From Candidatus Micrarchaeota archaeon (lineage in GTDB: Archaea > Micrarchaeota > Micrarchaeia > Anstonellales > Bilamarchaeaceae): a stretch of DNA of 61,173 bases. The stretch lies in contig JACRGB010000046.1 of the NCBI GenBank assembly GCA_016212505.1, forward strand, positions 1-61,173, in the 5' to 3' direction. Shown piece by piece: positions 3,186 to 48,107 of this stretch (position 1 is its first letter; each line of letters starts with the position of its first letter). Made by a program: the position numbers and the translations under genes. The notes beneath the pieces are model-generated. The model had not been told where the DNA came from, made no database searches, and was given only the letters and a program-made list of their open reading frames with translations.

Positions 3186-3620
3186 ATGGCTATGTGGGAT
3201 TCTAAAAACAACAAGGAAACAACCGTTAGTGCTACTGGTTCTGAAGTAAAAAGTACCAATCCATTCTCAATTCAGCTGTCTTTCTCGCCGCTAAGGCTTT
3301 CGTCAAATAGGATGAATTCGATTAATCTGGTTGTCAGGGTCAAAAACATTTCAAACGAAGCGCAGCTAGTATCTGTTGATGCCATGCTTCCAAGAAATTG
3401 TATGCTTGGATTCGACCAAGCATGCATAAACAAAACAACTGAAAAGCGCAGCGGTGAACTGGCACCAGGTGCGTTCAAGGACGTCCAGATCGAGATCTGG
3501 GCAAATAACCAGACCAAAAGCGGAAATTACCCAGTGGAAGTAACTGCTTTTGCCCATTATGTCGGATATGAAAAAGTAATTGGATACATTAAGAAGGGGA
3601 CTTCACTGCGAGTAGTTTGA
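3186..3620 (+). CDS. Hypothetical protein, probable Ig-like beta-sandwich
   Basis: 144-aa ORF after GAGGTGA RBS. Alternating beta-strand pattern (LVVRVKN, VQIEIWA, YPVEVTA). Confidence 0.75.
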   Translation: MAMWDSKNNKETTVSATGSEVKSTNPFSIQLSFSPLRLSSNRMNSINLVVRVKNISNEAQLVSVDAMLPRNCMLGFDQACINKTTEKRSGELAPGAFKDVQIEIWANNQTKSGNYPVEVTAFAHYVGYEKVIGYIKKGTSLRVV

Positions 3621-3660
3621 AATTTTTTTAAAAAGTTGGAGTCTAACCGAACACAATCAG

Positions 3661-4374: not shown

Positions 4375-5088
4375 TTATTCCGAATTTTGATGATCAAGCT
4401 CTGGGGCAATCAGGCGGGTTTTAACCTTTTCAGCAAAAGCAGGGTCGCTAATAAAGTCGATCGGCGCGCTCCTTGCATGATGACTTTCGACAATAAATGG
4501 GATAGCGTCAGGATCGAATTCCATCAGAGATAGCAAGTGGTTAAGACTTGAATGGAAAGAAGGGTCGTGAGATTGCCATTTGCCATCGACCTGGACTTCA
4601 ACCCACCAGTGACTATCATCCTCATCATCACCGAAAAAATGCGGGTGGCCCACCACACGAGCAGGCATCGAGTTTGCTCGGCAGACTGCTACCATTATAG
4701 AAGCACGATCGAAACACTGGCCGAGCCCGGAAACAAGCGCTTCGCTGGGGCTATCAGTAGCTGAGACAGGGTTACTAAACTGAGTAACAGCAAAAGCAAT
4801 TGAAAGGGTAAGTTCCGAAAGCCCCTCAACACTAAGACGCCGAATTGAGGATGGAAGGTTTGCAGTTTCAGGAAATGCATAACCTGGGACTGTGAGATGA
4901 CCATCCAATGCATCCATCACGCTATGAAATTGATCTGGGTCTGCCAGTTTTACAAGATGGGAACGAATCACATACGTATCTTCCTGGCGGACTGCGTAAA
5001 TCATCCTTTGGCCAATATCCCGGCCGACTGCAGCAGAAACATGATTGAAATCAAGTGAGGTTAAGCCATCAAATTTGCTTTGACACAT
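4375..5088 (-). CDS. Transglutaminase-like (Cys-His-Asp) domain protein
   Basis: GQCFDRASIMVAVCRANSMPARVV ... HWWVEV ... WQSHDPSF. Start codon uncertain. Confidence 0.8.
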   Translation of the reverse strand: MCQSKFDGLTSLDFNHVSAAVGRDIGQRMIYAVRQEDTYVIRSHLVKLADPDQFHSVMDALDGHLTVPGYAFPETANLPSSIRRLSVEGLSELTLSIAFAVTQFSNPVSATDSPSEALVSGLGQCFDRASIMVAVCRANSMPARVVGHPHFFGDDEDDSHWWVEVQVDGKWQSHDPSFHSSLNHLLSLMEFDPDAIPFIVESHHARSAPIDFISDPAFAEKVKTRLIAPELDHQNSE

Positions 5089-5323: not shown

Positions 5324-5710
5324 ATGCGAATTGTAATTAGTGAAGCTACTGGAAAGAGCTATCAGGCTGAAATTCCGAAGGACAAGGAAGCTATGATAGC
5401 AGGAAAGAAGATAGGCGAAAAGATAGAGGGAAACCTCGTTGGCGCAGCAGGATACATGCTGCAGTTAACTGGTGGAAGCGACGGCAGTGGATTCCCTATG
5501 AGGGAGGAAGTTGCAGGATCAGCCAGAAAATCAATATTGACCAGTGATGGCGTCGGTATGAAGGCAGAACGAAAGGGCGAGCGGAAGAGGAAAAATCTAA
5601 GGGGAAACACGTATTCTTCTGAAATCATGCAGGTTAATGCAAAAGTCGTAGCTGGAGGAGCAACACCACTTGAGCAACTCTTTCCAAAGAAGGAAGCAGT
5701 GAAGAAATGA
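5324..5710 (+). CDS. rps6e: 30S ribosomal protein S6e
   Basis: LTGGSDGSGFPMR and GERKRKNLRGN motifs. Confidence 0.96.
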   Translation: MRIVISEATGKSYQAEIPKDKEAMIAGKKIGEKIEGNLVGAAGYMLQLTGGSDGSGFPMREEVAGSARKSILTSDGVGMKAERKGERKRKNLRGNTYSSEIMQVNAKVVAGGATPLEQLFPKKEAVKK

Positions 5711-7693: not shown

Positions 7694-7796
7694 TAAAATA
7701 ATACCTCATTTTTAAAATCTTCTTCAGAATATTAATTATCGAATTTTGAGTAAAATCAGAACTCTAGACTGTGAACCGGGAACAGAAAACATTACT

Positions 7797-7937
7797 GCTG
7801 GGGTCGCCTAGCCCGGTATGGCGGCAGGTTGCTAGTGCCTTTTAGTAAAAGGCACCCCAAAACGGGGTTGCTATTGCTAAGGCATGTGGAAACCTGTTGC
7901 GCGTGAGCGTTCGGGAGTTCAAATCTCCCCCCTAGCG
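7797..7937 (+). tRNA. trnS: tRNA-Ser(GCT) with 57-nt intron at 37/38 (7835-7891)
   Basis: Acceptor GCTGGGG/CCCTAGC, anticodon stem GCAGG/CCTGT, anticodon GCT at 7831-7833, long variable arm GCGC-GTGA-GCGT, T-arm GGGAG-TTCAAAT-CTCCC, discriminator G, no encoded CCA. Confidence 0.93.
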
Positions 7938-7997
7938 AACGAAGTGAGCTGGGGGGGTACTTGAACGAATCGTCGTTCAAGAAGACCCCCCTAGCGA
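7927..7997. repeat. 12-bp duplication of the tRNA-Ser 3' end around a hairpin insert
   Basis: CCCCCCTAGCGA at 7927-7938 and 7986-7997. Between them lie GCTGGGGGGG and TTGAACGA-atcg-TCGTTCAA. Confidence 0.8.
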
Positions 7998-8034
7998 CCT
8001 ACTTTTTGTTATTAATTTTAGCCCAACTAAAAAA

Positions 8035-14628: not shown

Positions 14629-15114
14629 ATGGACATCAGAAAGCAGGCACTAGTTGGAATGACAATTGTCTCAGTATTTGTTTTTTTGGTTACTGTTTTG
14701 GTGGTTGTTTTCTCCCTTTATTCACAGGGGCAAGAAGTACCGGATTTACTAAAACCCTTCCTGGCATATCATGTCCAATTCATGATAGTAATGGGTCTTT
14801 TCGGGGTCGGATCGGGTTTAGCACTTTATACCATACTTAATTCAACACTCGAAAAACAGAAACAAATAGTAAAAACCAACAGCCAGATAATTATGAAATT
14901 CCTTGCAAAAGATGAGCGGGAAGTGGTCTCACTCCTCTTATCAAAAGATGGACGAACTACTCAAAGCGAAATTGCAAGCTTACCAAATATGAGCAGGTTG
15001 AAGGCTCATCGAATAGTTAAAAAACTTGAAGGCCAGGGAATAGTGCATGTTGAAAAATACGGGAAAATCAACATGATAAGGATAATTGATGAGTTGATGG
15101 AACTTGAAAACTAA
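14629..15114 (+). CDS. Membrane-anchored wHTH regulator
   Basis: Two N-terminal TMs with YHVQF, then TTQSEIASLPNMSRLKAHRIVKKLEGQGIVHVEKYGK. Divergent from the copper cluster. Confidence 0.82.
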   Translation: MDIRKQALVGMTIVSVFVFLVTVLVVVFSLYSQGQEVPDLLKPFLAYHVQFMIVMGLFGVGSGLALYTILNSTLEKQKQIVKTNSQIIMKFLAKDEREVVSLLLSKDGRTTQSEIASLPNMSRLKAHRIVKKLEGQGIVHVEKYGKINMIRIIDELMELEN

Positions 15115-15460
15115 AACTGATAAAAGTAATAAATATAAGATTAAGGAATTTGAACGCAGAGTTTACGCAGCATGCGCTAAAATCCCAAAAGGCAAAGTTT
15201 CCACTTATTCTGCAATCGCCCGCGCAATTGGAAAACCTGGATCGGCAAGGGCAGTTGGAAATGCATTAAACAAAAACCCACACTCATTCAATCTCAAAAC
15301 CCAAGACGCAAAACACAAGACACTTGTTCCTTGCCATCGGGTGGTTCGGTCGGATGGTTCGGTTGGCGGATATGCGCATGGAACTAAAGCAAAGATTGCG
15401 ATACTAAAAAAAGAAGGAGTGAAAATAGTGGCTGGGCGAGTAAGGTTAAAGAAAAATTAA
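15104..15460 (+). CDS. ogt: Methylated-DNA--protein-cysteine methyltransferase
   Basis: IPKGKVSTY, ARAVGNALNKNP, active-site PCHRVV. Confidence 0.93.
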   Translation: MKTKTDKSNKYKIKEFERRVYAACAKIPKGKVSTYSAIARAIGKPGSARAVGNALNKNPHSFNLKTQDAKHKTLVPCHRVVRSDGSVGGYAHGTKAKIAILKKEGVKIVAGRVRLKKN

Positions 15461-35838: not shown

Positions 35839-36534
35839 ATGCTTCAGCGAATTCCTGCAATAGTTACTCTGTCTAGTTTGGGAAAACATACTCCAATAAA
35901 GGTGGCCATAGACCGATGTAGAGCACAAAATAGGCCAGCGATCGATGCGATAGTTGGACAGACAAAAACAATCCCTGCACCTTCAAGGCGACTGCCATTT
36001 GCAGACTTGCCTCCAAAAATGATAAACGGGCCAATGAGTAGTTTCAGAATTCTCCCAGTGCCTGAAGAAGAAATTACACTTTTTGGCAAAGAAGTTGGAA
36101 AGGTTTGGGATCGAACAGCAATCGGGGAAAGAAGAACTTATGGCTTAAGCGGCGCATTATTGATACCTGGTTCTGATATTAGCAACATGTTTTCCTTAAG
36201 GAGAATTGGGGTGAATCTGGGAAGCCTTCTTGCTGAGATAGAACAAATAGGGGAGGAAAAGCGCGCCCTGGAGATATTATTAAGACTAAAAAGAGGATTA
36301 ATAGGAGGCCATTCTCTACAAACTACGCCAGAAGAAGCATTAGGAGCAATAAGTGAGTTTGTTCGAAGAACCAGAAATGAGTTAGCCAGTAGAGGAGTAA
36401 GTACACTAGGAGCAAACGCGGGATTTCCTGAAGAGGAGATCCGAGGGGCAATGGCACGAGATAGTGGCAAAATATCCACTATCGGAAAAGTCCTCACGGT
36501 AATACTTGCTTTTGGTTTTGCTGATTGTTGGTAG
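35839..36534 (+). CDS. Hypothetical protein (ORFan)
   Basis: 231-aa ORF just upstream of tRNA-Trp. Confidence 0.6.
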   Translation: MLQRIPAIVTLSSLGKHTPIKVAIDRCRAQNRPAIDAIVGQTKTIPAPSRRLPFADLPPKMINGPMSSFRILPVPEEEITLFGKEVGKVWDRTAIGERRTYGLSGALLIPGSDISNMFSLRRIGVNLGSLLAEIEQIGEEKRALEILLRLKRGLIGGHSLQTTPEEALGAISEFVRRTRNELASRGVSTLGANAGFPEEEIRGAMARDSGKISTIGKVLTVILAFGFADCW

Positions 36535-36595
36535 CTTGGTTTTGCTAAAATCTAATTGTTTAATAAAACATCGCAGCATAAAAGGGAAAGTAATT

Positions 36596-36862
36596 GGGGT
36601 TATGGCGTAAGTGTTACCAGTTTTGAGTCTTGAGTTTTGTTTTTACAAAACGAAGCAAAACGGAAAACTCGAAACTGTGCACAGCGTGGCCAGGTAGCGC
36701 GGCAGTCTCCAGATCAACTCTCGCCTAAAACGGCGAGAAATTTAGCCGCGAAAACTGCATGTCGGAGTTCAAAAGAGTTTTCAGTCCTGTGTTTTGAGTC
36801 TTGACGAATCGTTCAAAACCCAAAACGGAAAACTGGAAACGCGGAAGTTCTCCGTGACCCCA
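36596..36862 (+). tRNA. trnW: tRNA-Trp(CCA) with three introns (about 36610-36688, 36713-36752, 36774-36848)
   Basis: Joined exons give 73 nt: GGGGTTATGGCGTA|GCCAGGTAGCGCGGCAGTCTCCAG|AACTGCATGTCGGAGTTCAAA|TCTCCGTGACCCCA. Acceptor GGGGTTA/TGACCCC, D stem GCGT/GCGC, anticodon stem GCAGT/ACTGC, T stem CGGAG/CTCCG. Intron 1 boundary was placed to keep A14; its BHB is weak. Confidence 0.88.
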
Positions 36863-36878
36863 ATTTTTAGGTGAAAAA

Positions 36879-37682
36879 ATGAAAGTTTACATCGGTTTGG
36901 CATTGTTGTTGGTAGTACTTTTCGGATGCAGCCAGCCCGTGAACCCGCAGAATAATACGACTCAGAATAATTCCCAAAATAGTGGGCCAATAGTCGTCGC
37001 ACTTGGCGATAAAGTTTCGGTTGATTATGCTCTTTATGTAGATGGTAAAATCGTGGATACCAACAATTTAACAGTAGCAACCCAAACCGATACGGTCAGC
37101 GCATTCAAAAAATACGAACCATTAGAATTTTTCATGACCTTTGAGAGTAACTTGATTAGCGGGTTTGTGGCAAATATAGTCGGGATGACGGTAAATGAGA
37201 CAAAGAACTTTACGGTAGCACCCACCCTAGGTTACGGGGCTTATGATCCGCAGAAAACTGCCACGATAGGAAGGTATTACCAAAAAAATATGCTTGAAAA
37301 CGTTTCGAGAAAGGAGTTGGAAGCAGCAGGGATCAATACAACCAAAGGAATCTCTTTTAACACTGCCTCTGGAACCGTTTTCATAAATGATGTCGATGAG
37401 AATAACGTTACTTTATTTTACCTTGTTAAAGCTGGGGACGAATTTAACATTGGCGGGGTGCCCCAAAAGGTCATCAGCACAGATAATCTTACGGCAACAA
37501 TAGAATATGCATTTTACTCAAATAGGACATATACAATAGCCGACCCGAATACGGGCGTACAAAGGCAATATCGATTGCTGAATAAAACTAATGATTCGGT
37601 AACGCTTGATTACAACCACCCACTAGCTGGGAAAACGCTGAATTTTGTTGTGACGGTTCTTAGCATACAAAAACAAAAATGA
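36879..37682 (+). CDS. Exported FKBP-type (SlyD-like) peptidyl-prolyl isomerase with long insertion
   Basis: Signal with lipobox-like LFGC; GDKVSVDY, DTN, PTLGYG, LDYNHPLAGKTLNFVVTV. Confidence 0.88.
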   Translation: MKVYIGLALLLVVLFGCSQPVNPQNNTTQNNSQNSGPIVVALGDKVSVDYALYVDGKIVDTNNLTVATQTDTVSAFKKYEPLEFFMTFESNLISGFVANIVGMTVNETKNFTVAPTLGYGAYDPQKTATIGRYYQKNMLENVSRKELEAAGINTTKGISFNTASGTVFINDVDENNVTLFYLVKAGDEFNIGGVPQKVISTDNLTATIEYAFYSNRTYTIADPNTGVQRQYRLLNKTNDSVTLDYNHPLAGKTLNFVVTVLSIQKQK

Positions 37683-46806: not shown

Positions 46807-47982
46807 ATGATAAAGCTTGAGCTGGACCGCAAAAAGCGCCTGATAATGGTTAAGGAGCCATCTGATGTCTCCTCATTGCAGAACGGTTTTTACGGCCAGA
46901 TGAAAAAAGGAATAATTTACCTATCCCCAGAAGAAGCGTTGTATGTGATGGATATTCGGAATGGAAAATGCTACGACGATGCTGGCAACCCGTTTACATT
47001 CAATGACATTGCCTCGCTATTTCTCAAAAACAAAAAATTGCTCGCCCGCTGCCTCACATATAAGGATTGGCGCGATAAAGGGCTGGTGCTTCGGTACATT
47101 AGCGAAGCAGAAGGTGGGTATGGCAGGACAGTTCTCAAAAAATACACGAGTGCGCCATTTAGGTTAGATGCTTTTGGTTTTGAAGGGTTATTTTTTCCCA
47201 ACGACCTTATTACAATGGTTGATGACCAAACGGTCGGGAAAGAGCTCTATGAGCGGTATTGGATCGGGCAGTTTGGAACCTATAAGGCATCCCATCGCGG
47301 GACAGTAGCCAAATATGATATTTATGAGACTATTTTCCTGCTAAAAAGCGGAAACCTCATGCTTAAGGGCTGTAACCTTGCAACCGTAGAGAAAGTTGCA
47401 AAGAAAAGGATCAAGTTCTTTGAGGATATTTACCTTGTTTACGAAGACTGGCGATCCCGCGGGTATGTGATTAAGACCGGCTTTAAGTTCGGGACGCATT
47501 TTCGGATTTATTTCCCTGGGGCTTCGCCAGTCCGAAGCGAAGACGAATGGATGCACTCGAAGCACGTTATCCATGTTTTCCCGAGGAAGCATAAACAGCT
47601 GATTTCGGAATGGGCCCGTGCGATCAGAGTGGCCCACTCGGTCAAGAAAACGTTCATCCTCGCGATTCCCGGAAAGAAAAAAGAAATCAAACTTAGCAAA
47701 ACCAGATCGCGGCTCGATTTTTTACTATACCATAGGAAGAAGGGCGGTATCGAAACGCCAAAAGACGGTTCGCCAAAATACCTGATGTATTCCCTGACCG
47801 AAGACGAATACATTGGTGGTGAAGAATTGTACGAAGCATTGGCAGAGTGCAAGCAGTTTGGTTTGGAAATGGTGGTTGCAATTAGTGATCGGGAGAGCAG
47901 CGTAACATATTATATAATTAAGGAATTGGAACTTCCTGGAAGCGAATATGAGTACTATGAGATTGAGTGGGTTCAGCCTTAA
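46807..47982 (+). CDS. endA: tRNA splicing endonuclease (multi-unit, epsilon-type size)
   Basis: LSPEEALY, YKDWRDKG, YEDWRSRGYVIKTGFKFGTHFRIY, HSKHV, AHSVKK (Tyr/His/Lys triad); 391 aa from ATG 46807 after GAGGTG. Confidence 0.93.
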   Translation: MIKLELDRKKRLIMVKEPSDVSSLQNGFYGQMKKGIIYLSPEEALYVMDIRNGKCYDDAGNPFTFNDIASLFLKNKKLLARCLTYKDWRDKGLVLRYISEAEGGYGRTVLKKYTSAPFRLDAFGFEGLFFPNDLITMVDDQTVGKELYERYWIGQFGTYKASHRGTVAKYDIYETIFLLKSGNLMLKGCNLATVEKVAKKRIKFFEDIYLVYEDWRSRGYVIKTGFKFGTHFRIYFPGASPVRSEDEWMHSKHVIHVFPRKHKQLISEWARAIRVAHSVKKTFILAIPGKKKEIKLSKTRSRLDFLLYHRKKGGIETPKDGSPKYLMYSLTEDEYIGGEELYEALAECKQFGLEMVVAISDRESSVTYYIIKELELPGSEYEYYEIEWVQP

Positions 47983-48041
47983 CTGAACCCACTGCCCACG
48001 AAAACCTGCGGGTTTTCATGGTTGAATGGGTTCAGCCGTAA
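47963..48041. repeat. Duplicated endA 3' end around a hairpin insert
   Basis: TTGAGTGGGTTCAGCCTTAA (47963-47982) vs TTGAATGGGTTCAGCCGTAA (48022-48041). Inverted copy CTGAACCCAC at 47983-47992. Confidence 0.8.
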
Positions 48042-48107
48042 GAGTTTTGAGTTTTTGTGTTTAGGGTTTCGAACAAATTGATATGAAACAAAAATGGAGT
48101 TGATAGT

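Follow-up and report, generated by a model that had tools for sequence, protein, structure and literature searches.

The question raised by this locus is whether intron sequence has been copied from one position of a tRNA gene to another and, if so, how much of it and in which direction. The DNA analysed, referred to below as the window (the whole stretch of 61,173 nucleotides), derives from an uncultured Micrarchaeota (DPANN) archaeon of a groundwater metagenome and has a GC content of about 42%. It carries a tRNA-Trp gene interrupted by three introns and a tRNA-Arg gene interrupted by another three. An earlier note on this DNA, made from the sequence, proposed that Trp introns 1 and 3 are homologous, that intron 3 begins like Arg intron 2, and that intron sequence had been copied both between positions and between different tRNAs.

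Source sequence and relatives compared

The sequence occurs only in DNA runs of a groundwater metagenome. In the independent Logan assembly of the source run, positions 36300-37100 are identical (0 differences, depth 17); since, in addition, the repeats are shorter than the assembly k-mers, those in the Trp introns are not an assembly artefact.

Relatives were represented by 80 loci around the FttA gene (numbered with the prefix L), whose FttA proteins are 53–88% identical in amino acids to that of the window. Orthologs of tRNA-Trp and tRNA-Arg(TCT) in these loci were mapped with a spliced aligner, which was applied to those two tRNAs only. The comparison thus covers 61 kb of the genome in question and, in the relatives, the flanks of one gene. 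The collections yielded no relative closer than 88% FttA identity, so the gain of intron 3 is not tightly bracketed. A search through the neighbouring FKBP protein brought no closer relatives either: the window's protein is a singleton and its best match is 55% identical.

The tRNA-Trp gene and its introns

Removal of the three introns (Table 1) leaves a 73-nt tRNA-Trp(cca) with a canonical cloverleaf, as called by ARAGORN on the spliced sequence. The exons match intron-free or single-intron orthologs in relatives, and the syntenic orthologs lie upstream of an FKBP lipoprotein gene. Neither tRNA-Trp nor tRNA-Arg was found in the window by ARAGORN in default mode or by Rfam at its gathering threshold; the E-value mode of Rfam returned only miRNA-like matches on the intron hairpins, which were judged spurious.

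Table 1. Positions in the window of the tRNA genes, their introns, the repeated blocks and the splicing endonuclease
Feature	Position	Strand	Description	Basis
tRNA-Trp(CCA) gene	36596-36862	+	4 exons, 3 introns	exon mapping against orthologs
tRNA-Trp exons	36596-36610, 36690-36712, 36753-36773, 36849-36862	+		exon mapping
Trp intron 1	36611-36689	+	79 nt, D-loop, 15/16	BHB table, fold
Trp intron 2	36713-36752	+	40 nt, canonical, 37/38	exon mapping, orthologs
Trp intron 3	36774-36848	+	75 nt, T-loop, 59/60	exon mapping, BHB table, fold
Shared 5' block, intron 1	36620-36633	+	GTTTTGAGTCTTGA, two heptads	exact repeat
Shared 5' block, intron 3	36791-36804	+	14/14 identical	exact repeat
Shared 3' block, intron 1	36656-36675	+	CAAAACGGAAAACTCGAAAC	repeat comparison
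Shared 3' block, intron 3	36821-36840	+	19/20 identical	repeat comparison
Outer diverged copy of 5' block, intron 3	36777-36790	+	GTTTTCAGTCCTGT, 11/14 (79%)	repeat family D1; pairing from fold
tRNA-Arg(TCT) gene	41141-41439	+	three introns	exon mapping, BHB table, ARAGORN on spliced sequence
Arg intron 1	41158-41256	+	99 nt	
Arg intron 2	41279-41347	+	69 nt, heptad type, 37/38	
Arg intron 3	41369-41424	+	56 nt, 58/59	
12-mer at 5' junction of Arg intron 2	41278-41289	+	AGAGTTTTCAGT, first base is exon A37	identical to 36774-36785
EndA splicing endonuclease	46807-47982	+	391 aa, three-unit epsilon2 type	Pfam tRNA_int_endo, 1.2e-29

Intron 1 has a strict hBHBh' motif, with a central helix H of GCGT/GCGT (4/4), bulges AA|G and GG|C, and 3/4 pairs in each of h' and h. 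The arms of its long hairpin have a 7-nt period, and the fold has an energy of −28.2 kcal/mol (z −3.9). The motif of intron 3 is relaxed (H 3/4, h' 3/4, h 4/4), and its outer helix is the T stem. Judged by their sequence, the Trp introns are probably ordinary archaeal BHB introns that would be excised from the pre-tRNA, a view that forms part of the explanation preferred below.

Intron 2, whose central helix is poor (H 2/4), fits neither a canonical BHB nor a box C/D guide. Its 3' end carries GCCGCG (36745-36750), complementary to CGCGGC at exon positions 23–28 (36703-36708), and this helix is part of the minimum free energy structure of the pre-tRNA (RNAfold), although it cannot belong to a BHB. 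In relatives whose D stem reads GTAC the canonical Trp intron reads GCCGTA, a double compensatory change (orthologs L002–L051 and L022–L036).

The endonuclease gene lies about 10 kb downstream of the tRNA-Trp gene. EndA aligns over its full length to PDB entry 4fz2 (E 1.5e-132), which we take to be the three-unit epsilon2 endonuclease of ARMAN-2; the PDB table labels the entry as a tRNA intron endonuclease, nothing more. Enzymes of the epsilon2 type cleave relaxed motifs in vitro, including one at 59/60 (PMC3239211). At 48041-48075, right after endA and a duplicate of its last codons, stands AGAGTTTTGAGTTTTTGTGTTTAGGGTTTCG, a heptad-like array that begins with a one-mismatch copy of the 12-mer AGAGTTTTCAGT.

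A hairpin core common to Trp introns 1 and 3

Two blocks are common to introns 1 and 3 and stand in the same order in both. The pair of exact 14-mers reported in the earlier note (36620-36633 = 36791-36804 and 36656-36669 = 36821-36834) is confirmed, and the second extends to a 3' block with 19 of 20 positions identical, CAAAACGGAAAACT[C/G]GAAAC, in which 36656 corresponds to 36821. The Smith–Waterman score of the two introns is 48, against 16.1 ± 2.7 for dinucleotide shuffles, and none of 1000 shuffles reaches 48. A 14-mer common to any of the 21 pairs that seven introns form was present in 6 of 3000 shuffled sets, a family-wise rate of 0.2%. Matches of this length are rare between shuffled introns. 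All members of the heptad family have an autocorrelation peak at lag 7, and this 7-nt periodicity lowers complexity, so that shuffles which ignore it overstate the significance of these values somewhat.

On the sequence comparison, homology is confined to the hairpin core. Identity is about 72% over a 57-column core alignment and lower over the whole introns, and an 80% whole-intron clustering rule would therefore miss the pair. The ends (terminal 9 + 14 nt of intron 1, terminal 17 + 8 nt of intron 3) are unrelated, so the proposed homology stands for the core and not from end to end. Splice-site ends are not shared because the 3' end of each intron must pair with its own upstream exon; the same BHB pairing requirement explains why the 3' end of intron 3, CGGAAGTTC, resembles the exon sequence CGGAGTTC. 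Complementarity also exists between the 5' arm of intron 1 and the 3' arm of intron 3, at 81% over 27 nt.

No direct repeat of the kind left by a target-site duplication flanks intron 1 or intron 3. Among the contigs of the source metagenome run, only the parent contig is at least 80% alike to either intron over its length, and a scan of metagenome contigs for the 20-mer CAAAACGGAAAACTSGAAAC gave 21 matches, all of them unrelated chance hits.

The fold shows intron 1 and intron 3 each as a single long hairpin that carries the blocks on its two opposing arms. To this extent the proposal that the blocks form the arms of the same long stem is borne out, but the pairing registers are offset by two heptads. 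In intron 1, GUUUUGAGU, the leading heptad of the 5' block, pairs with ACUCGAAAC, the heptad that closes the 3' block. The 5' block of intron 3 pairs instead with the first heptad of the 3' block, UCAAAACCCAAAAC, and ACUGGAAAC, at the end of the 3' block, is paired with an additional outer arm, GUUUUCAGU. This outer arm matches the 5' block at 11 of 14 positions, so that the 14-nt unit is present as a tandem duplicate in the 5' arm of intron 3. A G-to-C change within the outer arm is matched by the sole C-to-G difference between the two 3' blocks; the exchange of G:C for C:G between the outer stem of intron 3 and the homologous stem of intron 1 is compensatory.

History of the two introns in relatives

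The D-loop site of tRNA-Trp is occupied in L002, L003, L005, L009, L012, L013 and L051 as well as in the window. On the FttA tree this intron extends throughout a 21-taxon clade, with a loss in L017, and it is absent from the outgroups that have a clear Trp ortholog (L022–L025, L029–L032 and L036); a weaker deep-branching candidate, L033, may carry it (score 71). Its long form, of 77–82 nt, is found in four lineages and has arms of GT[TC]TNNN units. The order of units at this site, GTTT.. GTCT.. GTTT.., is common to L013, L051 and the window, which indicates that intron 1 is the resident copy. The heptad consensus itself varies by genome, being GTTTTGA in the window and GTTTCCG in L051 and L015. 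Arrays of at least three heptad units number 19 in the data, mostly in tRNA introns, against 0–4 in shuffles.

A T-loop intron of tRNA-Trp was found in four genomes only: at 59/60 in the window, at 58/59 in L005 and L013, and in L029, for which the exact site is not resolved. The sequences in L005, L013 and L029 are unrelated to that of intron 3. None of the relatives has a Trp intron at 59/60, and the T-loop is intact in L017, L002, L003, L009, L012 and L051. Comparison among relatives, which the earlier note had recommended as a means of timing the gains, thus points to a recent gain at 59/60.

Against intron 1 of the window, the orthologous D-loop introns of L003, L013 and L051 score 15–26 and its paralogue, intron 3, scores 48, a similarity above the background of the heptad family. 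On this basis the intron 3 core would be a far more recent copy that postdates the divergence of this lineage from the sampled relatives, and intron 1 is probably its donor, as the 59/60 intron is unique to this genome. The FttA node that joins the window to L013 and L017 has only moderate support (92/85). If a T-loop intron was ancestral at that node, the event would have been a replacement of content with a shift of 1 nt and not a new insertion. Taken with the shuffle tests, the sites empty at 59/60 and the more diverged orthologs uphold the claim that intron sequence was copied between positions of tRNA-Trp.

The 12-mer at tRNA-Arg intron 2 and similarity between tRNAs

The spliced tRNA-Arg, likewise a canonical cloverleaf, is called by ARAGORN as tRNA-Arg(tct) of 75 nt. 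In the window the 12-mer has two exact copies and no more, at the positions given in the earlier note (36774-36785 and 41278-41289), with the qualification that in tRNA-Arg one of its bases belongs to the exon. As an unanchored match it is reached in 12 of 1000 shuffles for this pair, and an exact match of at least 11 nt arises in some intron pair in 8.7% of shuffled sets (family-wise, 21 pairs), so that on its own it is not significant. Window-wide searches with shuffled introns give scores equal to that of the 12-mer. What makes it unusual is solely a post hoc criterion, a start within 3 nt of both 5' splice sites, which was reached in 0 of 3000 shuffled sets. Moreover, GUUUUCAGU may be a one-step variant of GUUUUGAGU of intron 1. 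The 12-mer is suggestive of membership of the same heptad family and is not proof of transfer.

Copying between different tRNAs, which the earlier note had derived from the 12-mer, does not follow from it; the general claim is upheld by other intron pairs. When the 57 introns of Trp and Arg orthologs are compared, z is at least 5 for 44 pairs from different genomes and for 4 pairs from the same genome, the two introns of each pair occupying different sites. Arg intron 3 of the window, in the T-loop, matches Arg intron 1 of L008, in the D-loop, at 33 of 34 positions, whereas the FttA proteins of the two are only 85% identical. The T-loop intron of tRNA-Trp in L005 matches the D-loop intron of tRNA-Arg in the same genome (33/38), and in L051 the D-loop intron of tRNA-Trp matches the anticodon intron of tRNA-Arg (42/57).

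The bodies of window Arg intron 3 and L008 Arg intron 1 align, but the tetranucleotide that pairs with the exon differs. In the former GAAC pairs with GTTC of the exon. The orthologous type of Arg D-loop intron ends in …GTTTGAGCAAC (L008 and L074), whose TGAG is read as pairing with exon CTCA, as worked out on the end of the L074 intron and not computed for L008. The pattern is the same as in Trp introns 1 and 3, a shared core with site-specific ends. Such a pattern argues against reverse splicing of a whole intron and favours copying, at the DNA level, of a core into, or together with, a splice-competent frame.

Arg intron 1 contains tracts of five and six T (CCTTTTTGGCTTTTTT, 41161-41175) inside the tRNA gene. 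Tracts of this length normally act as archaeal transcription terminators.

Hairpin modules in the window and its relatives

Three types of hairpin module can be distinguished: 7-nt-periodic stems, a TTTT-NNN-AAAA hairpin followed by CCAAAAC, and a hairpin of the form TTGAACGAA..TCGTTCAA. The second, more fully N4–8 TTTT NNN AAAA N4–8 and then C1–3 AAAA C, is a real, non-random class: 26 copies were found in the window and the 80 loci, against far fewer than one expected. Two of these are in the window (7835-7863 and 41369-41401) and 24 in L002–L074. The 23 copies flush with a splice junction are in forward orientation at 5' junctions (D-loop, 37/38 and T-loop) and appear as the reverse complement where they adjoin the 3' junction of the Arg anticodon intron. 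In L051 (~4740-4790, minus strand) the module GCGCCTTTTAGGAAAAGGCGCCCCAAAACGGGG lies in frame in pyrF, in a loop that exceeds that of most orthologs by 7 residues; the module would be a translated insertion or else an intron that has escaped recognition. In L046 an intergenic element of about 270 nt (3393-3660) is bounded by two inverted copies; it has no Rfam match and no tRNA was recognised in it.

A heptad array occurs in coding DNA as well. The ogt gene (15104-15460), for an O6-alkylguanine transferase, has an 11-residue insertion relative to solved structures, FNLKTQDAKHK, just before the PCHRV active site. Its DNA (15288-15321) is a four-unit array, TCAAAAC CCAAGAC GCAAAAC ACAAGAC, that matches the 3' arm of Trp intron 3 at 18 of 21 positions. 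Matches of intron pieces to coding regions (33301, 25794, 52255 and others) are at the level of chance in a window-wide search. Positions 1-260 and 1480-1720 consist of arrays of many consecutive, different short hairpins of about 20–25 nt each, in which 1-18 and 1542-1559 agree with segments of Arg introns 1 and 3 at 17 of 18 positions, on the edge of chance.

Partial repeats were also noted beside tRNA genes. The last 12 nt of tRNA-Ser (7796-7998) recur 59 nt downstream, after a hairpin; its anticodon is ambiguous, as ARAGORN calls GGA with a non-canonical intron site and a 37/38 intron would give GCT. Likewise CGGGCCCG of tRNA-Arg recurs 79 nt downstream (41432-41518), and both downstream inserts contain GAACGAAGTG. 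In L025 (~5400-5490) a second copy of the 10 nt with which tRNA-Trp begins (GGGGTCATAG) lies about 60 nt upstream of the gene, and a hairpin separates the two copies.

Origin of the intron 3 core

The explanation preferred here, to which we assign a probability of roughly three in four, is that the core of intron 3 was copied at the DNA level from intron 1, both being BHB introns cut by the epsilon2 EndA, an enzyme of broad specificity. The homology, the intron positions, the BHB geometry, the presence of the endonuclease and the phylogenetic distribution are observed; the direction of copying, its DNA level and the occurrence of splicing are what we infer from them. The hairpin cores of 7-nt units (GTTTTNN in the 5' arm, NNAAAAC in the 3' arm) would be passengers that EndA does not read, and they may evolve by duplication and recombination between introns at the DNA level. 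The D-loop intron at 15/16 would be old and clade-wide, and the T-loop intron at 59/60 would have arisen in the lineage of the window only. The core of the T-loop intron, which takes in two heptads from the 5' arm and about three from the 3' arm (33/34 bases), would have been copied from intron 1, located 165 bp away in the same gene, at a time long after this lineage had separated from the sampled relatives. A later expansion by two heptads would have shifted the pairing register.

Intron 1 might alternatively not be the donor at all, if both cores came from a third source, a MITE-like family of mobile hairpins whose modules in Micrarchaeota would settle in tRNA introns and the flanks of tRNA genes, in intergenic arrays and even in coding genes; a third donor may lie outside the 61 kb read. 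Intron 3 does look mosaic: its outer 5' end is identical to the start of Arg intron 2, and its apical hairpin, AGTCTTGACGAATCGTTCAA, resembles a segment of the Arg D-loop intron of L014 (20/24) and, on the opposite strand, the hairpin after tRNA-Ser (7961-7974, 13/14). The different TTTT-NNN-AAAA module, with 23 of its 26 copies flush with a tRNA splice junction, in both orientations, and others in frame in L051 pyrF and as an inverted pair between genes in L046, points the same way, as does the near-identity of window Arg intron 3 to part of the L008 Arg D-loop intron despite the more distant FttA. Yet the source run has no further contig at least 80% alike, the 20-mer scan of metagenome contigs gave chance hits only, neither a target-site duplication nor a transposase was seen, and the unit order of intron 1 is kept in its orthologs, which marks it as resident and not newly arrived. 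This origin is considered unlikely, though worth keeping in view. The possibility that no copying took place, and that the cores converged by independent slippage from similar heptad seeds or under selection for one genome-specific motif that serves a binding factor or mutual pairing, is consistent with the lag-7 autocorrelation of all family members, with the genome-specific consensus and with the complementarity of the intron 1 5' arm to the intron 3 3' arm. Slippage, however, gives identical neighbouring units, whereas here two and then three different units follow in the same order, and identity at 33 of 34 bases across non-periodic details is not expected; convergence is accordingly held to be improbable.

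Transposition at the RNA level, the classical proposal for intron mobility, would start from excised intron 1, inserted by reverse splicing into the T-loop of a pre-tRNA; a reverse transcript of that RNA would then have recombined into the gene. In archaea, excised tRNA introns form stable RNA molecules that are often circular. This route predicts the arrival of a whole intron, but intron 3 lacks the terminal 9 + 14 bases of intron 1, and no reverse transcriptase came to notice in those window genes that were examined; it appears very improbable. A chance resemblance between two T/A-rich hairpins of low complexity and shared composition can be given hardly any credence: it is refuted by the shuffle tests given above, to which the collinear 19/20 block adds.

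A wider proposal, held only tentatively, is that the hairpin modules of Micrarchaeota behave as mobile DNA that assembles and reassembles tRNA introns in either orientation, working inward from the splice junction. The same modules would also land in tRNA flanks, intergenic arrays and, in frame, in protein genes, and would be exchanged between genomes.

Relation to known systems and significance

Intron transposition in the Thermoproteales, in which intron sequence is common to different positions and tRNAs, is the nearest precedent (Fujishima 2010 Mol Biol Evol 27:2233 and Sugahara et al. 2008, as represented in PMC4090602 and PMC3239211). As far as these accounts go, the likeness extends to similar intron sequences at different positions of one genome, to gains that are recent relative to speciation and to a mechanism presumed to act at the DNA level. 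The differences, within the same accounts, are that the window belongs to the Micrarchaeota, of the DPANN, with an epsilon2 and not an (alpha-beta)2 endonuclease, and that its copy is intragenic and restricted to a 7-nt-periodic core with differing ends.

ARMAN-2 (Candidatus Micrarchaeum acidiphilum), in which 56% of tRNA genes are disrupted and the enzyme is of the epsilon2 type, shares with the window its phylum, its EndA architecture and many non-canonical and multiple introns (PMC3239211, PMC3488258). It, too, has a 59/60 intron with a relaxed motif, which is cleaved in vitro; that work reported no sequence families between intron positions and cited the Thermoproteales case only as a possibility. 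Our search of the literature found no report of intron families in Micrarchaeota. A census of Asgard tRNA introns found copying between tRNA genes undetectable (1.5%, against 0.6% in shuffles), together with repeated lineage-specific gains and many D-arm introns missed by standard callers, both of which recur here (bioRxiv 10.64898/2026.10.13.758758). Unlike in the Asgard lineages, cross-site similarity is frequent in the Micrarchaeota clade of the window.

Rickettsia palindromic elements and other MITE-like repeats are short hairpin modules that recur in RNA genes, intergenic DNA and, in frame, coding sequence. The in-frame pyrF module of L051 resembles the Rickettsia elements as they are generally described. 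Unlike them, the present modules have shown no target-site duplication, high copy number or partner transposase, and the core of Trp introns 1 and 3 exists in only two copies in the data available.

The Trp pair is a clear but not unprecedented case of an archaeal intron spreading to a new position; what is new is its occurrence in Micrarchaeota, the heptad-periodic cores and the restriction of copying to the core. The Thermoproteales have so far been the only lineage with clear evidence of copying, the 2026 Asgard census having found none, and the window adds a third lineage, in the DPANN. It is also a clean example, with donor and recipient in one gene, the history of the donor dated in relatives and the recipient site empty elsewhere. 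Copying of the core alone constrains the mechanism, in favour of recombination or insertion at the DNA level into a splice-competent frame. If the modules do behave as mobile DNA, Trp introns 1 and 3 would represent one visible step in the arrival of BHB introns, a route that no study has pinned down.
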